A program made the translations under genes and the position numbers. The notes beneath the pieces are model-generated. The model was not told the DNA's origin. It did no database searches and was given only the letters and a program-made list of their open reading frames with translations. DNA of 32,000 nt from Candidatus Woesearchaeota archaeon (GTDB lineage Archaea > Nanobdellota > Nanobdellia > Woesearchaeales > ARS49): the NCBI GenBank assembly GCA_002687275.1, contig NYZT01000021.1, positions 29,317-61,316 of the forward strand. Direction: 5' to 3'. This document shows, piece by piece, positions 1,790-10,673 of the stretch. Position 1 is the first letter of the stretch; every line of letters begins with the position of its first letter.

Positions 1790-4741
1790 TTAGCTGCATC
1801 CGATGCTGTTGCCGCAGTTGAGGCACTTGTAGCAGGAGCCATTCCTTACGGTGATGTGGCCACAGCTGGGGCAGGAGGGCGCATCCCCCATCATGCCGGA
1901 TAGTTGGTTATCCAGGGCATCTGTTGGCTTTTCCTTGTCTGTCTTTGGCTGGTCTGCCTGGGTGGGCGCTTCGGGCGTGTGGAGGAAGTCTGTCCTTCCA
2001 AGATAGTCTTTGCCTAACAATCTGAACACGAAGTCTACCATGGAGGTGCAGGTTCGGATGTTTTTGTGGTCTGTGAGCCCCATGGGTTCGAAGCGTTGGA
2101 AGGTGAACTTGTTGACGTACTTGTCTAGGGGAACGCCGTGCTGTAGGCCTATGCTTACGGAGATGGCAAAGCAGTTCATCAGGCTTCTGAGGGTTGCGCC
2201 TTGCTTGTACAGGTCAAGGAAGATCTCGCCCAACCTACCATCCTCATACTCTCCGGTTCTGACAAAGACTTTTTGGCCTGCCACTCGGTAGCCGTAGGTT
2301 CTGCCCACTCTTTCTTGTGGCAGGTGTTCTTGCTTGCCTCGGTTGATGGTGGCCTCCTCTTGTTTTGTTTTTGATTGTAGGGGCTGGGATGCCTTGCATC
2401 CGTCTCGGTACAGCGCGATCGCCTTGACTCCTGTCTTCCAGGCTTCCATGTAACAATTGTAGATGTCTTCTACGGTTGCTTCGTGGGGTAGGTTGACTGT
2501 TTTGCTGATCGCTCCTGAGAGGAAGGGTTGGGTTGCTGCCATCATACGAACGTGGCCTAGGGCTTGGATGAAGCGTTGGCCGCCGCCGCACTTGTTGGCG
2601 CAGTCAAACACTGCGTAGTCATCCTGATGTACGTGGGGTGCGCCTTCGATGGTCTGCGCTCCGCCAACGTAGATTGCTGCTTCCTGGATCTGTGCATCGG
2701 ATAATCCCTTGTCTTTCAGCGCTTTTGTTTTTACGTGTGGCGTCCACTCGTCTAGGGATTTCATTTTTGCCACGTAGTCTTGGGCTTCTTTGATCTGTTC
2801 TTCTGTGAAGCCTAGCTCTTTGAGCTGGTCAGGGCTGATGTGCGGTGCGTTGTCAAGCGTGCCATGTCCTAGGATGTACTCGATGATGTCTTTGGTTTGC
2901 TCTTCGGTGTAGCCGAGATTGTGCAGGGCCATGCTGATGCTCTTGTTGACGATCTTGAAGTGGCCGCCGCCTGCTAGTTTTTTCCACTTGACGAGGCTGA
3001 ACTCGGGCTCCACTCCTGTGGTGTCGCAGTCCATGAGTAGTGCGATGGTGCCTGTGGGGGCCAAAACCGTTGTCTGTGAGTTTCTGTAGCCGTGTTTTTC
3101 CCCCATAGAAACGGCGTTGTCCCAGTCTTCTCTGGCTGCGTTGAGGAGGTCTTCTGGGCAGCTTTTTACGTCTAGGGCGTAGGCTGCGTCTCTGTGCTTG
3201 CGCATGACGTTGAGGAAGGGTTCTTTGTTGTCTTTGTATCCGGGGAAGGGGTCTACCGCTCTTGCGAGCTCTGCGCTTGTTGCGTAGGCTGTGCCACACA
3301 TGATTGCGGTGAGTGCTGCTGCGGTGGCTCTTCCTGCATCTGAATCGTAAGGAACGCCATTCACCATGAGGAACGTTCCTAGGTTTGCGAATCCTAGCCC
3401 TAGGGGCCGGTAGTCGTGGGTGTTCTCTGCTATTTTCTTGGTGGGATAGCTGCTTAGGTCAACGATTATTTCTTGTGCTATCAGCATGAGTCTTGCAGTG
3501 TGTCGGTATGCTTCTATGTCTAGCCGGCCGTTTTGGTCGGTGAACTTCATGACGTTTAGGCTTGCAAGGTTGCAGGCGCTGTCATCGAGGAACATGAATT
3601 CTGAGCAGGGGTTGGAGGCGTTTATCCTGTCTGCGTTGGGGCAGGTGTGCCATTCGTTTATCGTGGTGTCGAATTGTATGCCAGGATCGGCGCATTGCCA
3701 GCAGGCATCGCAGATGGTGTTGAAGAGTTCTTTTGCGCGGAATTCCTTGACTTTTTTTCCGGTGGTTCTTTCTACTGTGTGCCAGGTGCTATCGCTTAGC
3801 ACTGCTTTCATGAAGTCATTCGTGACTCGTACGCTGTTGTTGCTGTTTTGGCCGGACACGGTGCCGTACGCTTCGCCGTTAAAGTCTGAGGGGTAGCCTG
3901 CTGATATGAGTGCTCTGGCTTTCTTTTCTTCGTTTGCCTTCCAGGTGACGAACGTGTGGATCTCTGGGTGGTCGACGTTGAGCACGACCATTTTTGCGGC
4001 TCTTCTTGTCGTGCCTCCGCTTTTAATGGATCCTGCTCCCTTGTCAAAGACCTCTAGGAAGCTCATGAGTCCTGAGCTCTGGCCTCCGCCAGAGAGTAGC
4101 TCTCCCTCTCCTCTAAGTTTTGAGAAGTTTGTGCCTGTGCCTGAGCCGTACTTGAAGAGTCTGGCTTCGGTTTTTAGGAGTTCAAAAATGCTGCTTAGGT
4201 CATCCCCTAGGCTTTGGATAAAGCAGGCGCTGCATTGCGGTCTTGTGTACGCGTCGGTTATCGTGGTTATTTTTCCTCTGTCAAAATCCCATGCGTAGTT
4301 CTCGCTGCTTCCTTTGATGCCGTACTCGTGGTACAATCCACAGTTGAACCATACCGGGCTGTTGAAGGCTGCTTTTTGGTTGATTAATATGTGGAGGAGT
4401 TCGTTCTCGAAGGTTTGGGCGTCATCTTTGGTGGCAAAATATCCTTTCTCTTCTCCAAACACGCGGATGGTGTGCGCCACCCTCCAGGTGACTTGTTTCG
4501 CGCTTGTCTCTGCGCCACCGTTGACTCCTGCCTTTCTGCAGTACTTGCTTGATAATATGTCTGTGGCTAGCTGTGACCAGGACGTCGGCACCTCTATGTC
4601 TTGCATCTCAAAAACGACCGTGCCGTCTGGTTCTGTTATGACAGTGCTTCGCTTAACGTACTCTAGCTCCTCAAACGGGTTGGGGGTTGCTAGGAGTGGC
4701 TTAACACGTATGCCTTGTTTAGATCTTAATCTTTGCTCCAT
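1790..4741 (-). CDS. nrdJ: Class II adenosylcobalamin-dependent ribonucleotide reductase
   Basis: 983 aa. Typical NrdJ N-terminus (VPTSWSQLATDILSSKYCRKAG) and core motifs (NPCSEFMFLDDSACNLASLN, TVLAPTGTIA). C-terminal CxxC...CxxC tail (CPSCGHITVRNGSCYKCLNCG) as in archaeal and Thermotoga-type class II enzymes. No intein-sized insertion. Confidence 0.95.
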   Translation of the reverse strand: MEQRLRSKQGIRVKPLLATPNPFEELEYVKRSTVITEPDGTVVFEMQDIEVPTSWSQLATDILSSKYCRKAGVNGGAETSAKQVTWRVAHTIRVFGEEKGYFATKDDAQTFENELLHILINQKAAFNSPVWFNCGLYHEYGIKGSSENYAWDFDRGKITTITDAYTRPQCSACFIQSLGDDLSSIFELLKTEARLFKYGSGTGTNFSKLRGEGELLSGGGQSSGLMSFLEVFDKGAGSIKSGGTTRRAAKMVVLNVDHPEIHTFVTWKANEEKKARALISAGYPSDFNGEAYGTVSGQNSNNSVRVTNDFMKAVLSDSTWHTVERTTGKKVKEFRAKELFNTICDACWQCADPGIQFDTTINEWHTCPNADRINASNPCSEFMFLDDSACNLASLNVMKFTDQNGRLDIEAYRHTARLMLIAQEIIVDLSSYPTKKIAENTHDYRPLGLGFANLGTFLMVNGVPYDSDAGRATAAALTAIMCGTAYATSAELARAVDPFPGYKDNKEPFLNVMRKHRDAAYALDVKSCPEDLLNAAREDWDNAVSMGEKHGYRNSQTTVLAPTGTIALLMDCDTTGVEPEFSLVKWKKLAGGGHFKIVNKSISMALHNLGYTEEQTKDIIEYILGHGTLDNAPHISPDQLKELGFTEEQIKEAQDYVAKMKSLDEWTPHVKTKALKDKGLSDAQIQEAAIYVGGAQTIEGAPHVHQDDYAVFDCANKCGGGQRFIQALGHVRMMAATQPFLSGAISKTVNLPHEATVEDIYNCYMEAWKTGVKAIALYRDGCKASQPLQSKTKQEEATINRGKQEHLPQERVGRTYGYRVAGQKVFVRTGEYEDGRLGEIFLDLYKQGATLRSLMNCFAISVSIGLQHGVPLDKYVNKFTFQRFEPMGLTDHKNIRTCTSMVDFVFRLLGKDYLGRTDFLHTPEAPTQADQPKTDKEKPTDALDNQLSGMMGDAPSCPSCGHITVRNGSCYKCLNCGNSIGCS

Positions 4742-5186
4742 CTTTCTTTAACTCTGTAATCGTCCGGACGAATTGTGTTGGGTCTTTAAACTTTTTGTAT
4801 ACGGAGGCAAAGCGCACGTACGCTACCTCGTCTAGACTTCGTAGTTCTTCCATCACTAACTCTCCGACTGTCTTGCTCTTGATCTGTTGCTTGTTCATGG
4901 CCAGGATCTTGCTTTCGATCCTGTCTGTCGCCTTGTCAATGCGTTCTTGGCTTATCCCTCGTTTTTCTAGGGCTAGCTCCATGCCTTTGAGGATCTTGGA
5001 ACGGTCGAACAACTCTCTTTCGGCCCCTCTCTTGACGATGAAGACGTCGGTTCTTACTATGCGTTCGTAGGTCGTCCATCGTTTTTTGCATGTCAGACAC
5101 TCTCGTCGACGTCTTGTCTCATTGTCTGGCGTGCGCCTGCTCTCTAGAACTTTGGTTTTTTCCTTGAGGCAGTACGGGCAGCGCAT
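4719..5186 (-). CDS. nrdR: NrdR-type transcriptional repressor (Zn ribbon + ATP-cone)
   Basis: MRCPYCLKEKTKVLESRRTPDNETRRRRECLTCKKRWTTYERI is the NrdR zinc-ribbon signature. It is followed by an ATP-cone-like region (VIKRDGxxExFDRxKI type). The 3' end overlaps the nrdJ start by 23 nt. Confidence 0.9.
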   Translation of the reverse strand: MRCPYCLKEKTKVLESRRTPDNETRRRRECLTCKKRWTTYERIVRTDVFIVKRGAERELFDRSKILKGMELALEKRGISQERIDKATDRIESKILAMNKQQIKSKTVGELVMEELRSLDEVAYVRFASVYKKFKDPTQFVRTITELKKDGAKIKI

Positions 5187-5341
5187 TTTGGTCGTTTTAT
5201 CGTCGTAAGCACCACATATGGGGCTTTTTGTCTTCTCGACGACACTAGGACAGAGATCATAACTTCCTTATATAGTTTGCTGTTTTCAAGAAGTGTAATC
5301 GGGAGCACAACCCATTTATACCCCCGACTATTCTTGGCAGT

Positions 5342-5953
5342 ATGAAGAGCGAACGCATCAAGCCCATCGTCGGAAGTGCCCTGCACAAGATTCTTGGCGT
5401 ACACGTCTCCGAGCTAGAGCAGGACGTCAGCGATAGGTTGACCAGGCCTCTTCTTCCTGCGCCCATCGACACGTCGCTGCCCTATCGTGAGGCCAAGCAA
5501 TTATTCCGGAAGGTGTTCTTGACCGCGCTCATCCAGAGACATCTTGGCAACATCAGCGAGGTGGCAGAGGTAGCTGGCGTGAAGCGGGAGACCGTCCACA
5601 GAATGATCAAGCAGTTGAAGATCGAGGTGGATAGCCTACGCAACCACCCAGCAAAGGCGTACGAGCGGGACAACCTCGTCCAAGATGTTGTCCAAAAAAC
5701 CATACGCAAATACGAGCCTGCGCTGAACCCTGCAAAAGTGCGCCTGCTGTACGATAACGTCCCAGACATCAGCAAGCAGTTGGTGAAGGAGTTGCCTGAG
5801 GAATGGGATCTTGAGCACGCAGAGGCAGAATGGGAGAAGGCATTCTTTGCCAAGGCGCTAGACCAGCACGACCACAACGTGAGCAAGACCGCACGAGCCC
5901 TCAAGATAAGGTATGAGACCCTGCACAGGAAGCTGAAGTCTTTAGGAATGTGA
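5342..5953 (+). CDS. DNA-binding protein with two Fis-type (HTH_8-like) helix-turn-helix domains
   Basis: Two internal copies of the NtrC/Fis C-terminal pattern: REAKQLFRKVFLTALIQRHLGNISEVAEVAGVKRETVHRMIKQLKI and HAEAEWEKAFFAKALDQHDHNVSKTARALKIRYETLHRKLKSLGM. ATTTATAC lies 28 nt upstream of the ATG. Confidence 0.8.
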   Translation: MKSERIKPIVGSALHKILGVHVSELEQDVSDRLTRPLLPAPIDTSLPYREAKQLFRKVFLTALIQRHLGNISEVAEVAGVKRETVHRMIKQLKIEVDSLRNHPAKAYERDNLVQDVVQKTIRKYEPALNPAKVRLLYDNVPDISKQLVKELPEEWDLEHAEAEWEKAFFAKALDQHDHNVSKTARALKIRYETLHRKLKSLGM

Positions 5954-5987
5954 ATAGGTTTTTAAGTCGACACCGTATCAATAATTC

Positions 5988-6593
5988 ATGCCTAGGATAA
6001 TCATCCTTGATGTTGATACCGAGATAAGATCCACGTTTCGCGAGGCTCTAGAAAAAGCAGGACACGAGTGCATTAGCGAAGGCATCCCTGGCGACATGAG
6101 CGTGCTAGACATGAATCCCGATCTAGTCATTACCGGAACCAAAATTAGCACCGGCGCTCCAAGAGACAATTCCTATAACATGGCTGTTCCCTACGCAGCA
6201 CAAGGACAAGGCATACCCTACCTCATTGTTTCTACCGATGGCGTAAGACGCCGAGAAGAACATGAAAATATGACGCCCCACATTCTCGACAAACCCATCG
6301 AACCTGACGTACTTATCCAGTGCGTTGAGAACCGCGTCGGCAAGTTCAACGCATTCTACACCGATTCCCTACCTGAAGTACTAGCATGCGACGATTACCA
6401 AGCCAAGCTCGCCCTGGAAAAGGGCCAGATAGCCAGAGTGACCCAGGCAAGAGACATAGGCGAAGCTCGCAACCTTATCAGAAGAGGAGGGTTTACCCTC
6501 TACATTGCAAGTTGTGAAAGCGCGGTGTGGGATCATGAAGAAATTGCACGAGAGGCAGACGTACCTGCCATAATCCACAAAATAAAAAAATAG
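5988..6593 (+). CDS. Receiver-like (CheY-fold) protein with a degenerate phospho-acceptor plus a C-terminal domain paralogous to 7580..8302
   Basis: IIILDVD (acidic pocket), DLVITG where DxxxxD is expected (acceptor Asp replaced), YLIVSTDG and ILDKPIEP (the T/S and K-P positions). The C-terminal RVGKFNAFYTDSLP aligns with RIGQFDTMYESGLP of the 7580 protein. Confidence 0.7.
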   Translation: MPRIIILDVDTEIRSTFREALEKAGHECISEGIPGDMSVLDMNPDLVITGTKISTGAPRDNSYNMAVPYAAQGQGIPYLIVSTDGVRRREEHENMTPHILDKPIEPDVLIQCVENRVGKFNAFYTDSLPEVLACDDYQAKLALEKGQIARVTQARDIGEARNLIRRGGFTLYIASCESAVWDHEEIAREADVPAIIHKIKK

Positions 6594-6598
6594 GGTCG

Positions 6599-6757
6599 CT
6601 AGCCCTCTCCTAATTCCTGCATTTTTTCCTCCACAGCCTTTGATTCGTTCTCTAGCTGGTCTCTGTAGTCCTTCAACATATCTACTCTTTCTTTCTTCGT
6701 GAAGAAAGACCTTTTTCCACAAGGGCTCCTGCACTTTTCTGGGCAACACGTTTCCAT
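6599..6757 (-). CDS. 52-aa Cys-rich plus coiled-coil small protein (not in the ORF track)
   Basis: METCCPEKCRSPCGKRSFFTKKERVDMLKDYRDQLENESKAVEEKMQELGEG. GGAGGTGG lies 6-7 nt upstream of this ATG. The overlapping 126-aa track ORF starts 4 nt upstream, too close to the SD, and runs antisense into the neighbouring gene. The fold is reminiscent of DUF5320-type small proteins; that is from memory and unverified. Confidence 0.5.
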   Translation of the reverse strand: METCCPEKCRSPCGKRSFFTKKERVDMLKDYRDQLENESKAVEEKMQELGEG

Positions 6758-6773
6758 GCATACCACCTCCTAC

Positions 6774-6844
6774 TATCGGGTATACGATAGAAGTATATAA
6801 ATATATCGGTTATGCGATATCCACGTTCTATTGGATACGCGATA
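6774..6844. promoter_or_regulatory. Three TATCG-N6-CGATA inverted-repeat operators in the divergent PadR / small-ORF promoter
   Basis: O1 6774-6789 TATCGGGTATACGATA. O2 6804-6819 TATCGGTTATGCGATA. O3 6829-6844 TATTGGATACGCGATA (one mismatch). They are interleaved with TATA elements at 6792-6806 (minus-strand gene) and 6848-6855 (PadR gene). Confidence 0.55.
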
Positions 6845-6875
6845 CACTTATATATCCCCAAAACATCCCAACCCT

Positions 6876-7172
6876 ATGAAGAAGTGCTGCGACATGAAAG
6901 GCATGCTCAGCTTTCTTTGTCTACGCTTGATCAGCAAGCAAGCGATGTCAGGGGAAGACATCAGAAAAGCGCTAGAGCAGAGAAAGGGATCAAGACCGAG
7001 CCCCGGCACCATCTATCCCGTGCTCAAAAGCCTCCAGAACTCAGGCTGGATCATTATTATTAGCAAAGGTAAAGAGAAAAAGTACGAGCTCACCACCAAG
7101 GGAAAGCTCGCCACCAAAGAAGCCACCAGAAAGTTCGTACGCATGTTCTGCGACATGAAAAGCGAGTTTTAG
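6876..7172 (+). CDS. PadR-family winged-helix transcriptional regulator
   Basis: MKKCCDMKGMLSFLCLRLISKQAMSGEDIRKALEQRKGSRPSPGTIYPVLKSLQNSGWI...KKYELTTKG matches PadR hallmarks (SPGTIYPxLxxLexxGxI, YxLTxKG). I chose the start at 6876 because TTATATAT lies 28 nt upstream and the 6831 ATG sits inside operator O3. Confidence 0.85.
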   Translation: MKKCCDMKGMLSFLCLRLISKQAMSGEDIRKALEQRKGSRPSPGTIYPVLKSLQNSGWIIIISKGKEKKYELTTKGKLATKEATRKFVRMFCDMKSEF

Positions 7173-7206
7173 AAAAGTTTAAGAATAACTTCCCTACACC
7201 AAGCGG

Positions 7207-7557
7207 ATGTCTCGAGTGGCAAAAGTAGTTGTTTTAGATAACGACAAGCAAAGATGCATCGACCTCTCACAGGCCATCCAAAAGCTGGGGCCAGACGTTG
7301 TGAGTGGAGATTTCCAACAAGGCCCAAGAGAGTTTTTGGAAAAAAAAGGAACAGTCGATCTTTTGGTTGTCAGCCTCGACCCATCTGTCAATGTTGAGGA
7401 ACTTCCCGAGGCCATAAAAGACCATCCGGATCCACTCATCTATGTGACTCCAGGAGATGGCCAAGTTTCTGAAGACCAGCTCACCTATGTCAAAGGAGAA
7501 GGCTACGACACCGTGGCAAGAGAGATCGTAAAACAACTAGAAGACCCACCTTTATAA
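7207..7557 (+). CDS. Single-domain CheY-like receiver protein
   Basis: VVVLDND (acidic pocket), VDLLVVSLD (candidate acceptor Asp), LIYVTPGD (T position). The K-P position is not obvious. TTTAAGAATA lies 29 nt upstream of the ATG. Confidence 0.65.
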   Translation: MSRVAKVVVLDNDKQRCIDLSQAIQKLGPDVVSGDFQQGPREFLEKKGTVDLLVVSLDPSVNVEELPEAIKDHPDPLIYVTPGDGQVSEDQLTYVKGEGYDTVAREIVKQLEDPPL

Positions 7558-7579
7558 GGCCACCGTGCATTGAAGACCC

Positions 7580-8302
7580 ATGCCCAAGATTACACTCGTA
7601 GAGGACGATCCAGTCACAAGAACGATTATATCCGCCGCAATATCCACGATTGGCGACGTCCAAATAGTAAGCACAGTACAGGAGGCCATTCCACACGTAG
7701 CTGATAGCGACTTCGTCGTAACCGATTATAACCTTCCAGATGGCAGGGGAACAGAGGTTATCAAAGAAGCAGTAGCCAATCGCGTGCCGTATTTCCTCAC
7801 CTCTGGAGACGGCCTTGATCTCATGCATACCCATCTTGATCTTGCACCCCACACCATTCCAAAGCCTGTGGGCGTGGCGGCACTCAAGGAGATGACAGAA
7901 ACCAGGATAGGTCAGTTTGACACAATGTATGAATCAGGATTGCCGCTCGTGTTCAGCTACAGTAAAAAATCTAAAGACGCGTACGCGGCAAAGATCATGA
8001 TAGAAGGAGCAGGCCTGGCTCGCGTGGTGGCAACGGCAAACGATAACCGGTGGATGGAGCTAGCACGTGACCTAGCCAGAACACCCGCACCCCTAAGCAT
8101 ACTCATCGCAGACGCAGATAGCGATGCAGGTGCACAAGTCATCGAGATGAACGCCACGGAGCTAAGGACAAGCTACATCGTGCTTTGTGGGAAAGACCGT
8201 GAGAACGAGATGAACCATTGCGTATACCCCTTTGAGGGCGACACCTTCCTCGACATGGTAGACTCAAGACTCGCACGTGCCGACCCAGGCGCCAGGATCT
8301 GA
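7580..8302 (+). CDS. Response-regulator receiver protein with a second degenerate receiver-like domain and no recognisable output domain
   Basis: Canonical REC residues are present: ITLVEDD, DFVVTDYNLPDGRG, YFLTSG, IPKPV. The second half (LPLVFSYS...ILIADADSD...IVLCG) looks like a divergent flavodoxin-fold or REC repeat. TTTATAAG lies 29 nt upstream and overlaps the previous stop codon. Confidence 0.8.
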   Translation: MPKITLVEDDPVTRTIISAAISTIGDVQIVSTVQEAIPHVADSDFVVTDYNLPDGRGTEVIKEAVANRVPYFLTSGDGLDLMHTHLDLAPHTIPKPVGVAALKEMTETRIGQFDTMYESGLPLVFSYSKKSKDAYAAKIMIEGAGLARVVATANDNRWMELARDLARTPAPLSILIADADSDAGAQVIEMNATELRTSYIVLCGKDRENEMNHCVYPFEGDTFLDMVDSRLARADPGARI

Positions 8303-8336: not shown

Positions 8337-10673
8337 ATGACAAGATTCTTTCTCGTAGACATCCACTACACCATCGAAGCAGGCAAGGCCATCCTCCGCC
8401 TGTATGGGAGGGATGGGAAAGGCAAGCCAGTCACGCTCAAGGATGAAAACTTTGAGCCATACTTCTACGTGGTGTGCGACGATCCTGCAGGACTAGAAGA
8501 TCTCAAAGAAGACGATTTTCACGTAACAAAAGTAGAAAAAGAAGAAAAGTTGTTGCTAGAAAAGCCCGTCACTGCGTACAAAGTGTACGTCAACCTGCCA
8601 ACAGCAGTACCCGTGCTACGCGAGCTAGCCAAAGACATCGGACAAACACTAGAAGACGACGTGTTGTTTGCAAGAAGATACCTCATCGACAAAGGACTCA
8701 CCCCGCTAGACCTTGTAGAAGCAGAAGTGGAAGGCGACAGCATCAAAACAATAAAAGCAGAAACAGGAACCTACACGCCAAAAGGGTTAGCGTTTGACAT
8801 CGAAACCTACACGCCACCAGACAGGAAAGAGATAGACTACGACAACCCCATCATCATGATAGCCGTCTACGCTCCCGACTATCAGAAAGTCCTTACGTGG
8901 AAAAAAGCAAAAGGGGCAGAGGTCCTCGACAGTGAGAAGGCCATGCTAGAACGCTTTGTTGACGTCGTCAAAGCATACGATCCTGACATTCTTACCGGGT
9001 ACGCCAGCGATGGCTTTGACCTGCCCTACCTACTCGCACGATGCAAAAAGCTGAAAGTGCCGCTAGCGCTCGGAAAGGATGGTAGCAGCGTGATCACAAA
9101 AGGCAGGAGCAGACAGGAGGCAAGAATAACCGGCATCGCCCATGTCGACCTGTACAAGTTCATACGAAGAGTGCTCGGCCGAACCATGAAAACCCAAAGC
9201 TTCTCCTTGAACAACGTAAGCCAAGAGTTACTAGGAGAAAAAAAACAGGAAGTAGACCTGGACAACATAGGCAGCGCGTGGGATGCAGGCAAGATAGACG
9301 AGTTTGTAGAGTACAACCTCCAGGACACAAAGCTCACCTACAACCTCATGCTCAAAGTGTGGCCGTCCCTCCTAGAAATGACAAAGATAGTCGGGCTGCC
9401 ACTATTTGACGCCTCACGATTAAGCTTCTCCCAGTTCGTAGAATGGTACATGATGAAAAAAGCGTTCTCCATGAACGAACTGTTCCCGGCAAAGCCCGGC
9501 TACCGCGAACAGACAAGAAGAATGGGCCAGCGAGCGCAAGGAGGCTACGTCTACGAGCCAGAGCCAGGCGTGTACGACAACATCGCCGTGTACGACTACC
9601 GAAGCCTCTACCCCAGCATCATTGTCTCCCACAACATAAGCCCAGGCACCGTCAACTGCGAGTGCTGCAAAGGAAAGATACCAGAACACGACATGCACTT
9701 TTGCAAGAAAAAACAAGGATTTGTTAGCGGCGTGATCAAAGAACTACTAGACTACCGAACCACCATAAAAAAACAAAGCCAAAAAAACAAAGACGTCGTG
9801 CTAGAAGCAAGAGCGTACGCACTCAAGGTGTTGCTGAACAGCTTCTACGGCTACCTCGGCTTTGCCATGGCAAGATGGTACTCTACACAGTGCGTAGAGG
9901 CCATCACCGCCTACGCAAGACACTACGTGAAGGACGTCATTGCCAAGGCAGAAAAACAAGGCTTTGCCGTCCGCTACGGAGACACAGACTCCTGCATGCT
10001 AGAACTCGGCAAGAAAACAGAAAAAGACGCCAAGAAATTCTTACAACTCGTCAACAAGGGCTTGGCAGACCCCATGGAGCTAGAACTAGAAGACGTGTTC
10101 CCTGCAGGCATCTGGGTGGCCACCAAAGGAACAGCACAAGGCGCCAAGAAAAGGTATGCGTTGCTAGACAAAGAAGGAAATCTGAAAATAAGAGGGTTTG
10201 AGAGCGTACGAAGAAACGCAGCAGTCATCGCAAGAAAAACCCAACAAGAATTGCTCATGATCGTGCTCAAAGACAGAGACAAAGAAAAAGCCGTCAAGTT
10301 AGTCAAGGACACCGTGGATAAGCTCAGAAAGAACGAGCTGCCAATCGAGGACGTCGTCATCACCACCCAAGTCCAAAAAACAACAGACAAGTACGAAAGC
10401 GTGGGGCCGCACGTCGCAGCAGCAAAATTAATGGAAAACAAGGGCAGGACGGTCAAGAAAGGAACCATCGTTGCATATATTGTCAAGAAAGGCGAGGGAA
10501 AGATTCGCGATCGCGTGCAGCTCGCAGAGGACGCCAGGCAAGGCGAGTATGACGGCGAGTACTACATCACCAACAGTCTTGTTCCTGCCGTAGAAAACAT
10601 TCTCAGCGTACTAGGAGTGAGTCCAGAGAGCATCACCGAGGCAACCCAGCAGACGACCTTGGCGGGTTTCTAG
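8337..10673 (+). CDS. polB: Family B DNA polymerase
   Basis: Exo I LAFDIETY, Exo II GYASDGFDLPYL, Exo III YNLQDTKLTYNL, Pol A DYRSLYPSII, Pol B KVLLNSFYGYLG, Pol C RYGDTDS. 778 aa with no intein. Confidence 0.95.
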   Translation: MTRFFLVDIHYTIEAGKAILRLYGRDGKGKPVTLKDENFEPYFYVVCDDPAGLEDLKEDDFHVTKVEKEEKLLLEKPVTAYKVYVNLPTAVPVLRELAKDIGQTLEDDVLFARRYLIDKGLTPLDLVEAEVEGDSIKTIKAETGTYTPKGLAFDIETYTPPDRKEIDYDNPIIMIAVYAPDYQKVLTWKKAKGAEVLDSEKAMLERFVDVVKAYDPDILTGYASDGFDLPYLLARCKKLKVPLALGKDGSSVITKGRSRQEARITGIAHVDLYKFIRRVLGRTMKTQSFSLNNVSQELLGEKKQEVDLDNIGSAWDAGKIDEFVEYNLQDTKLTYNLMLKVWPSLLEMTKIVGLPLFDASRLSFSQFVEWYMMKKAFSMNELFPAKPGYREQTRRMGQRAQGGYVYEPEPGVYDNIAVYDYRSLYPSIIVSHNISPGTVNCECCKGKIPEHDMHFCKKKQGFVSGVIKELLDYRTTIKKQSQKNKDVVLEARAYALKVLLNSFYGYLGFAMARWYSTQCVEAITAYARHYVKDVIAKAEKQGFAVRYGDTDSCMLELGKKTEKDAKKFLQLVNKGLADPMELELEDVFPAGIWVATKGTAQGAKKRYALLDKEGNLKIRGFESVRRNAAVIARKTQQELLMIVLKDRDKEKAVKLVKDTVDKLRKNELPIEDVVITTQVQKTTDKYESVGPHVAAAKLMENKGRTVKKGTIVAYIVKKGEGKIRDRVQLAEDARQGEYDGEYYITNSLVPAVENILSVLGVSPESITEATQQTTLAGF

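Follow-up and report, generated by a model that had tools for sequence, protein, structure and literature searches.

Upstream of polB, the gene of a family B DNA polymerase, a window of 32,000 nucleotides from the genome of a Candidatus Woesearchaeota archaeon (contig NYZT01000021.1, positions 29,317 to 61,316) encodes a tandem Fis/NtrC-type helix-turn-helix (HTH) protein and several receiver (REC) or receiver-like proteins. Our analysis shows a receiver family that is pinned to polB, persists without kinases, is under purifying selection, and tolerates loss of the phospho-acceptor Asp in the genus of this archaeon. Taken as a whole, the region is, with moderate confidence, best explained as three juxtaposed units rather than one pathway: polB-tied, kinase-independent receivers, an independent HTH protein, and a unit around a PadR-family regulator. 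An earlier prediction, made from the DNA sequence without database searches, had joined four open reading frames (ORFs), here designated HTH2, pREC1, sREC and REC2 (Table 1), into one cluster. All four ORFs were found where they had been placed, and the cluster as drawn missed a padR gene and a small Cys-rich ORF that lie inside it. The archaeal context assumed there is confirmed by the genes for PolB, PolD, Topo VI and LonB, all of which are encoded, and by homologs that carry Woesearchaeota names.

The genome of the window (G000; 1.09 Mb in 55 contigs, 89.5% complete) was compared with that of a sister species in the same genus (G001; a marine metagenome-assembled genome (MAG) from the eastern tropical North Pacific, 98% complete) and with those of further relatives (G0xx or G2xx; loci or DNA stretches within relatives or G000 are given as Lxxx). 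The family survey comprised 77 species-level genomes, in 68 of which (29 genera) the start of polB is assembled. Beside Pfam REC, we used a REC-family profile of our own, built from the polB-linked receivers.

Receiver genes and polB

In 28 of the 68 family genomes (11 of 29 genera), Pfam REC has a match on the polB strand no more than 1.5 kb ahead of that gene, and in 11 of these 28 it is the only REC match of the genome. Our own profile adds the degenerate upstream genes of G001, G013 and G023, bringing the pairing to 31 of 68 genomes and 12 of 29 genera. All 13 polB loci from named Woesearchaeota MAGs have an upstream receiver, encoded by one REC gene, by two in tandem or by a REC-REC fusion, and the gap between receiver and polB is 5–35 bp. 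Four of the receivers, those of G016, G011, G012 and G024, exceed the Pfam cutoff; in the last, a canonical REC of 121 amino acids stands between nrdR and polB. The rest of the polB neighborhood differs from one genome to the next. Given one or two REC genes in a genome of ~1 Mb, chance adjacency would amount to ~0.002 per genome; the raw count of pairs is inflated by relatedness, yet the pairing is kept across 12 genera in which PolB is only ~50% identical. Outside the family, a scan of the 1.2 kb ahead of polB with our profile gave no REC-like frame in ~38 genomes of other Woesearchaeales families, and no REC adjacent to polB was found in 9 further other-family genomes; the pairing is a trait of this one Woesearchaeales family. 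The position next to polB, from which the original prediction had drawn a hint of replication control, thus turned out to be the strongest signal. Among the papers searched, none links a receiver domain to PolB.

In the G000 assembly, profile searches found no HisKA domain, and the HATPase_c matches are limited to GyrB and Topo VI-B. There is no match in G000 to sigma-54 (RpoN, PF04552), a profile that does match bacterial controls, and the sigma-54-interacting AAA+ domain (PF00158, Sigma54_activat) gave only partial matches, which belong to the LonB protease and an intein-containing MoxR. REC2 is the sole match to the Pfam REC profile. The original statement that the window encodes neither a kinase nor an AAA+ or output domain holds there and extends to the whole assembly. 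HisKA was likewise not found in G001 and is present in just 5 of 24 genera of the family; in G001, G024, G016 and G011 the HATPase_c frames are topoisomerase-sized only. At least eight pair-bearing genomes have no kinase, and three (G012, G019 and G023) have HisKA in addition to the pair.

One extra weak HATPase_c match in G001 was considered, together with a REC-like neighbor, as a kinase system and rejected: it is of the MORC/Hsp90 type (HATPase_c_3), has no dimerization and histidine phosphotransfer domain, and has no counterpart in G000. It belongs to an island on contig C11 (L097:140-6176) with two REC-like proteins (198 and 249 amino acids) and two HATPase_c_3 (MORC/Hsp90/sacsin-like) ATPases, one of which has a WLM/metallopeptidase-like tail. 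This island, missing from G000, may be a defense or stress module.

The receiver character of the individual proteins is graded. In REC2 the catalytic residues are all present (D9/D10, D49, T74/S75 and K95-P96), the N-terminal domain is modeled by AlphaFold2 (AF2) with a predicted local distance difference test score (pLDDT) above 90 (residues 1–110 mostly above 85), and Foldseek aligns it at TM scores of 0.7–0.8 to many solved receivers, PleD-type REC-REC proteins among the matches. Its Pfam REC score of 25.5 bits lies under the gathering cutoff of 30.2, and neither pREC1 nor sREC has a Pfam REC match. pREC1, proposed to be a receiver-like protein that has lost its Asp, is indeed a paralog of REC2 (BLASTP E = 1e-16, 28% identity over 192 amino acids; E = 1.8e-4 against our REC-family profile), with VITG in place of VVTD at the acceptor column, that is, Gly for Asp. 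The C-terminal half is common to REC2, its G001 ortholog and pREC1, so that the suggested paralogy is real; the suggestion that this half is itself a degenerate REC is not supported (1% in hhalign against the REC family; AF2 pLDDT 37–72). For sREC, described as a single CheY-like domain, there is no Pfam or NCBIfam match and hhalign against the REC family gives 0.4%; its only relatives are the G001 ortholog (35% identity) and one fragment, the latter being all that a search of 1.84 billion protein representatives returned besides sREC itself. The CheY-like label is thus not confirmed; the beta-alpha pattern of sREC, on which it rests, would allow a receiver-like fold. PADLOC models of defense systems did not match any of the REC proteins.

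Between G000 and G001, NrdR, the ribonucleotide reductase (RNR), HTH2, PadR and PolB are 85–95% identical, in contrast to 41% for REC2 and 35% for sREC. The ratio of nonsynonymous to synonymous substitution rates (dN/dS) is 0.22–0.46 for the receivers and 0.05–0.08 for the adjacent PolB, with dS largely saturated, and the receivers evolve 5–9 times faster than PolB. As their dN/dS is clearly below 1, the receivers are under constraint and are not pseudogenes. Across the aligned family members the Lys does not vary, P96 is invariant or nearly so, and the acceptor column holds Asp in 16 of 18 members; the two exceptions, Asn in REC2 of G001 and Gly in pREC1, both fall in the genus of G000. Judged by their sequences, the receivers of this genus are losing the phospho-acceptor Asp. 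Together with the absence of a kinase, these substitutions uphold the earlier idea of a pseudo-receiver that acts independently of phosphate. At one pair of loci (L088 and L089; REC 2258-2992 and 2264-2992, polB 3001-5403) the receiver dS is 0.44 and that of polB 2.35, the opposite of the pattern elsewhere; the receiver gene may have recombined or been transferred, or the estimator may be noisy.

These observations are consistent with a family of free-standing receivers, REC or REC-REC, that is specific to the lineage. Its genes directly precede polB and run in the same direction, and in the genus of G000 the family would have expanded to pREC1, REC2 and possibly sREC. Because they have no kinase to draw on and their phospho-acceptor is disappearing, the receivers most likely work as phosphorylation-independent modules of protein-protein interaction, of the pseudo-receiver or adaptor type. 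Their target, as gene linkage suggests, would be PolB or the replication/repair machinery. Going one step further, we tentatively consider that they are dedicated regulatory or accessory subunits of PolB, a kinase-independent or small-molecule-charged switch that would gate the use of PolB versus PolD in replication or repair. If so, they would provide the first known case of a receiver-domain protein with a direct action on a DNA polymerase.

Most response regulators of archaea consist of REC on its own and are presumed to work via protein-protein contacts, and most archaeal REC-only genes have no conserved gene neighborhood (2018 census; PMC5847659). Stand-alone receivers are numerous in archaea, yet for want of a conserved neighborhood hardly any of their partners have been identified; the polB-linked family is an exception. 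Like the stand-alone regulators CheY, Spo0F, DivK, CpdR and the archaeal REC-only proteins (PMC5847659), it has a REC fold of ~120 amino acids and no output domain, with the catalytic residues present in REC2. The presumed mode of action, binding of a partner protein, is likewise the same. It differs from them in the lack of a kinase, the tie to polB, very fast evolution, and frequent duplication or fusion to REC-REC. CpdR comes closest in logic, as a receiver that binds an enzyme machine directly and thereby regulates it.

Among the pseudo-receivers and atypical response regulators (FrzS, the KaiA N-domain, HP1043, ChxR, the plant pseudo-response regulators, and the degenerate second REC of PleD), pREC1 and REC2 of G001 find their likeness as scaffolds without the acceptor Asp. 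We know of no link between any of these proteins and a DNA polymerase, and in contrast to them, canonical and degenerate copies coexist here in one genus, as in a transition in progress. For small proteins that modulate a family B polymerase, the PolB1-binding proteins PBP1 and PBP2 of Sulfolobus are an archaeal precedent; these are crenarchaeal and not receiver domains, and their likeness to the polB-linked receivers implies no homology. The family thus offers receivers tied to a biochemically tractable partner candidate, PolB, in streamlined kinase-less genomes, with canonical and Asp-less copies together. Two questions, what receivers do without a kinase and how pseudo-receivers originate, become testable with recombinant proteins.

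The tandem HTH protein

HTH2 matches Pfam HTH_8 with 47.6 bits (cutoff 22) in two stretches (residues ~60–91 and 165–199) and the C-terminus of NtrX in NCBIfam (E = 4e-14). Its AF2 model is all-helical (pLDDT 82), and the C-terminal module superposes on the DNA-binding domain of NtrC4 at 0.4–0.5 Å. A profile of the HTH2 family matches NtrX, NtrC4 and Fis in the PDB, and identity of the C-terminal module with the NtrX DNA-binding domain is 46% over 48 columns. In an alignment of 32 family members the mean column identity is 56%, with both HTH motifs almost invariant. The assignment of a tandem HTH_8 protein is thereby corroborated.

Of 24 sister genera, 23 have HTH2, as do 5 of the 16 other families in a first sample, and a class-wide sample confines it to the order Woesearchaeales. 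It has no conserved REC neighbor; its neighbors change from genome to genome, and it adjoins receivers only in G000 and G001. In G001, pREC1 is missing between HTH2 and PadR; in G007, HTH2 lies directly upstream of polB with no REC between them; and in G024, ~10 kb separate it from the REC-polB pair. For the HTH-REC pairing, relatives outside this genus thus lack the co-occurrence whose absence the original prediction had itself named as a refutation, and its proposal of an NtrC pathway split into cooperating REC and HTH_8 polypeptides is not supported.

HTH2 would instead be a protein in its own right, restricted to the order, whose two Fis/NtrC-type HTH modules form a "pseudo-dimer" within a single chain, and it probably acts as a sigma-54-independent transcription factor. 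Each module has, like Fis and the DNA-binding domains of NtrC, NtrX and NtrC4, a long helix plus the HTH; in contrast to these proteins, HTH2 joins two modules in one polypeptide rather than forming a homodimer, and has neither REC nor AAA+ domain, in an archaeon free of sigma-54. The conserved N-terminal ~45 amino acids and the inter-module linker of ~60 amino acids have no counterpart in them. With the NtrC-type enhancer-binding system HTH2 has the C-terminal HTH_8 in common; sigma-54, a PF00158 regulator and co-inheritance of REC and HTH are missing here.

A candidate operator accompanies the protein. In at least 12 of 21 genomes, an inverted repeat, TGTGAC-W6-7-RTCA (W, A or T; R, A or G), abuts the TATA box of the HTH2 gene. 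In five relatives, the form of its core TGAC-N6-GTCA with an A/T spacer is rare genome-wide, and besides the HTH2 promoter it marks the promoter of a conserved gene for a protein of ~70 amino acids, which is followed by a gene for one of ~260. The core is present at this small-gene operon in all eight genomes examined (L160:1516-1568 in G010, L142:1516-1568 in G011, L144:1501 in G020, L140:1516 in G018, L170 in G001, L169 in G012, L171 in G016 and L168 in G007), with one or two operators in G001, G007, G012 and G016; the small gene is missing from the G000 assembly. HTH2 plausibly binds TGAC-N6-GTCA at its own promoter and at the small-gene operon in most relatives. It is the candidate binder because two HTH modules in one chain would fit an inverted repeat spaced by about one helical turn, the conserved repeat having a spacer of ~6–7 bp. 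This inverted repeat, with its A/T-rich center, resembles Fis/NtrC-type sites. Near REC and polB the candidate operator occurs at chance frequency (7 matches in 226 kb), which argues against a circuit of HTH2, receivers and polB. As a Woesearchaeales-wide, single-chain Fis-like regulator with a recognizable operator, HTH2 would be one of few entry points to the control of transcription in DPANN archaea.

The ~70-amino-acid protein of the small-gene operon contains …EQIGFHKGALTTLAKER…VEQLMQMHxKALKDLG…, and Pfam searches with it and the ~260-amino-acid protein gave nothing significant. We also considered that the HTH2 operator and the palindrome of a toxin promoter in the window (TCCGGAAATCTTCCGGA) are sites of one regulator, and rejected this, the motifs being different.

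Alternative explanations

Several points weigh against polymerase-associated, kinase-independent receivers beside an independent HTH2. Most polB-linked receivers outside the genus of G000 keep the acceptor Asp, and those may be charged by small-molecule donors or, in G012, G019 and G023, by the kinases present there. We infer the contact between receiver and PolB from gene linkage only. The pair is missing from more than half of the family genomes and from all sampled other families, so PolB does not need the receiver, and PolD is encoded beside PolB in G000. Each gene may be transcribed alone, as TATA-like boxes stand in every gap of ~34 nt, and cotranscription of REC2 and polB is a possibility only. 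A kinase could sit in the unassembled ~10% of G000, a concern countered by the kinase-free and more complete G001. As for HTH2, G000 and G001 are without TGAC-N6-GTCA at their own HTH2 promoters. A covariation of this loss with a changed first recognition helix (KRET versus DRRS) was considered and rejected, since G001 keeps the motif at the small-gene promoter; the genomes with a changed helix are three and form one clade.

The receivers could also be what is left of a two-component system that lost its kinases in genome reduction, drifting to loss themselves, with a position beside polB that is meaningless inherited synteny; we regard this as possible but unlikely. Very fast evolution (REC2 41% identical between congeners versus 85–95% for its neighbors), the loss of the acceptor Asp from two of three copies in the genus, the missing kinases, the absence of the pair from more than half of the family and the orphan status of sREC would all fit decay. 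Against this, no fewer than 31 genomes from 12 genera retain intact frames, with a dN/dS (0.2–0.46) clearly below 1; K95 and P96 are invariant or nearly so, and the Asp is kept in 16 of 18 aligned members. Moreover, repeated duplication and fusion (tandem genes, REC-REC) speaks for use, and the pair is retained as sole REC in streamlined genomes of ~1 Mb while other polB neighbors shuffle. It appears rather improbable that the receivers work as true phospho-switches that obtain their phosphate from small molecules (acetyl or carbamoyl phosphate), or else from non-cognate or host kinases, and couple PolB use to metabolic state. The Asn acceptor in the only REC2-type protein of G001 and the Gly in pREC1 imply that, in this genus, the conserved function cannot depend on phosphorylation. 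A search of G000 for acetate kinase found none, and at least eight pair-bearing genomes do without a kinase. This has to be set against the retention of all five catalytic residues in REC2 of G000 and most family members, the standard receiver predicted for the REC2 N-domain, and the HisKA proteins of three pair-bearing genomes.

The disassembled NtrC-type pathway of the original prediction, in which REC proteins dock on HTH2 and control transcription, possibly of polB, without sigma-54, is in our judgment very improbable. In its favor are the proximity of HTH2 and pREC1, which lie 34 nt apart on the same strand, and HTH_8 being typical of NtrC-family regulators; in G007, moreover, HTH2 directly precedes polB, and in G000 and G001 it precedes the REC-polB unit. 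In addition, response regulator and HTH genes are often neighbors in archaea, an interaction between their products being presumed only (PMC5847659). However, whether or not REC genes are present, HTH2 exists in 23 of 24 genera and in other families, and it has no conserved REC neighbor, pREC1 is missing from G001, REC tracks polB rather than HTH2, the candidate operator is at chance near REC and polB, and G000 has neither an AAA+ enhancer-binding protein nor sigma-54.

Gene layout and neighboring units

Table 1. Features of the window from nrdJ to polB
Feature	Coordinates	Strand	Remarks
nrdJ, class II RNR	1790..4741		overlapped by nrdR
nrdR	4719..5186	-	Pfam ATP-cone and Zn_ribbon_NrdR; divergent from HTH2
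HTH2, single-chain tandem Fis/NtrC-type HTH_8 DNA-binding protein	5342..5953	+	Pfam, AF2, PDB profile
pREC1, pseudo-receiver paralog of REC2	5988..6593	+	BLASTP, own REC-family profile
Cys-rich small ORF, 52 amino acids	6599..6757	-	divergent from PadR; translated
Three TATYG-N6-CGATA palindromes and two TATA-like boxes	6774..6856		divergent promoter region of PadR and small ORF
PadR-family winged-helix regulator	6831..7172, likely start ATG 6876	+	PF03551
sREC, genus-restricted orphan gene	7207..7557	+	beta-alpha pattern only
REC2, polB-linked receiver with genus-specific C-terminal alpha/beta half	7580..8302	+	AF2, Foldseek, Pfam REC
polB, family B DNA polymerase	8337..10673	+	Pfam DNA_pol_B (181 bits) and exonuclease domain

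TATA-like, A/T-rich boxes are located at 5315, 5959, 6847, 7177, 7551 and 8308, each 27–30 nt ahead of the following ATG. Their placement suggests that genes in this region are as a rule transcribed singly and without leaders, the 34-nt gaps being promoter-sized rather than of the operon type. Scans for sigma-70 promoters and terminators stayed at chance level, with models that are not applicable to archaea.

PadR scores 43.8 bits against PF03551 (cutoff 27) and is 86% identical in G001. Its likely start is set by the TATA-like box at 6847, 29 nt ahead of the ATG. The 52-amino-acid Cys-rich ORF (METCCPEKCRSPCGK…) is homologous to a 55-amino-acid ORF at the same place in G001, where all three palindromes are kept as well (L084:1390-1450). 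As read from the DNA, this conservation points to a self-contained, autoregulated unit, in which PadR and the small ORF would be expressed divergently, with the three palindromes as operators. The unit sits as an insertion that parts HTH2 from the receiver-polB pair.

The nrdR-nrdJ unit adjoins polB in G000, G001, G024 and G007 (window 1790-5186 and 8337-10673; L083, L044), which makes this a neighborhood of dNTP supply and polymerase in at least three genera.

Further observations concern record taxonomy and inteins. The stretches L085-L091, L095 and L096 are deposited as "uncultured Methanosarcinales archaeon", yet their PolB and gene order are Woesearchaeota-like, and the taxonomy of these records is probably wrong. 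The MoxR AAA+ ATPase of G000 (contig C52, L011) carries an intein with a LAGLIDADG domain, and polB frames of ~1250–1320 amino acids in G014, G060, G064, G205 and G207 suggest inteins in PolB of these genomes.

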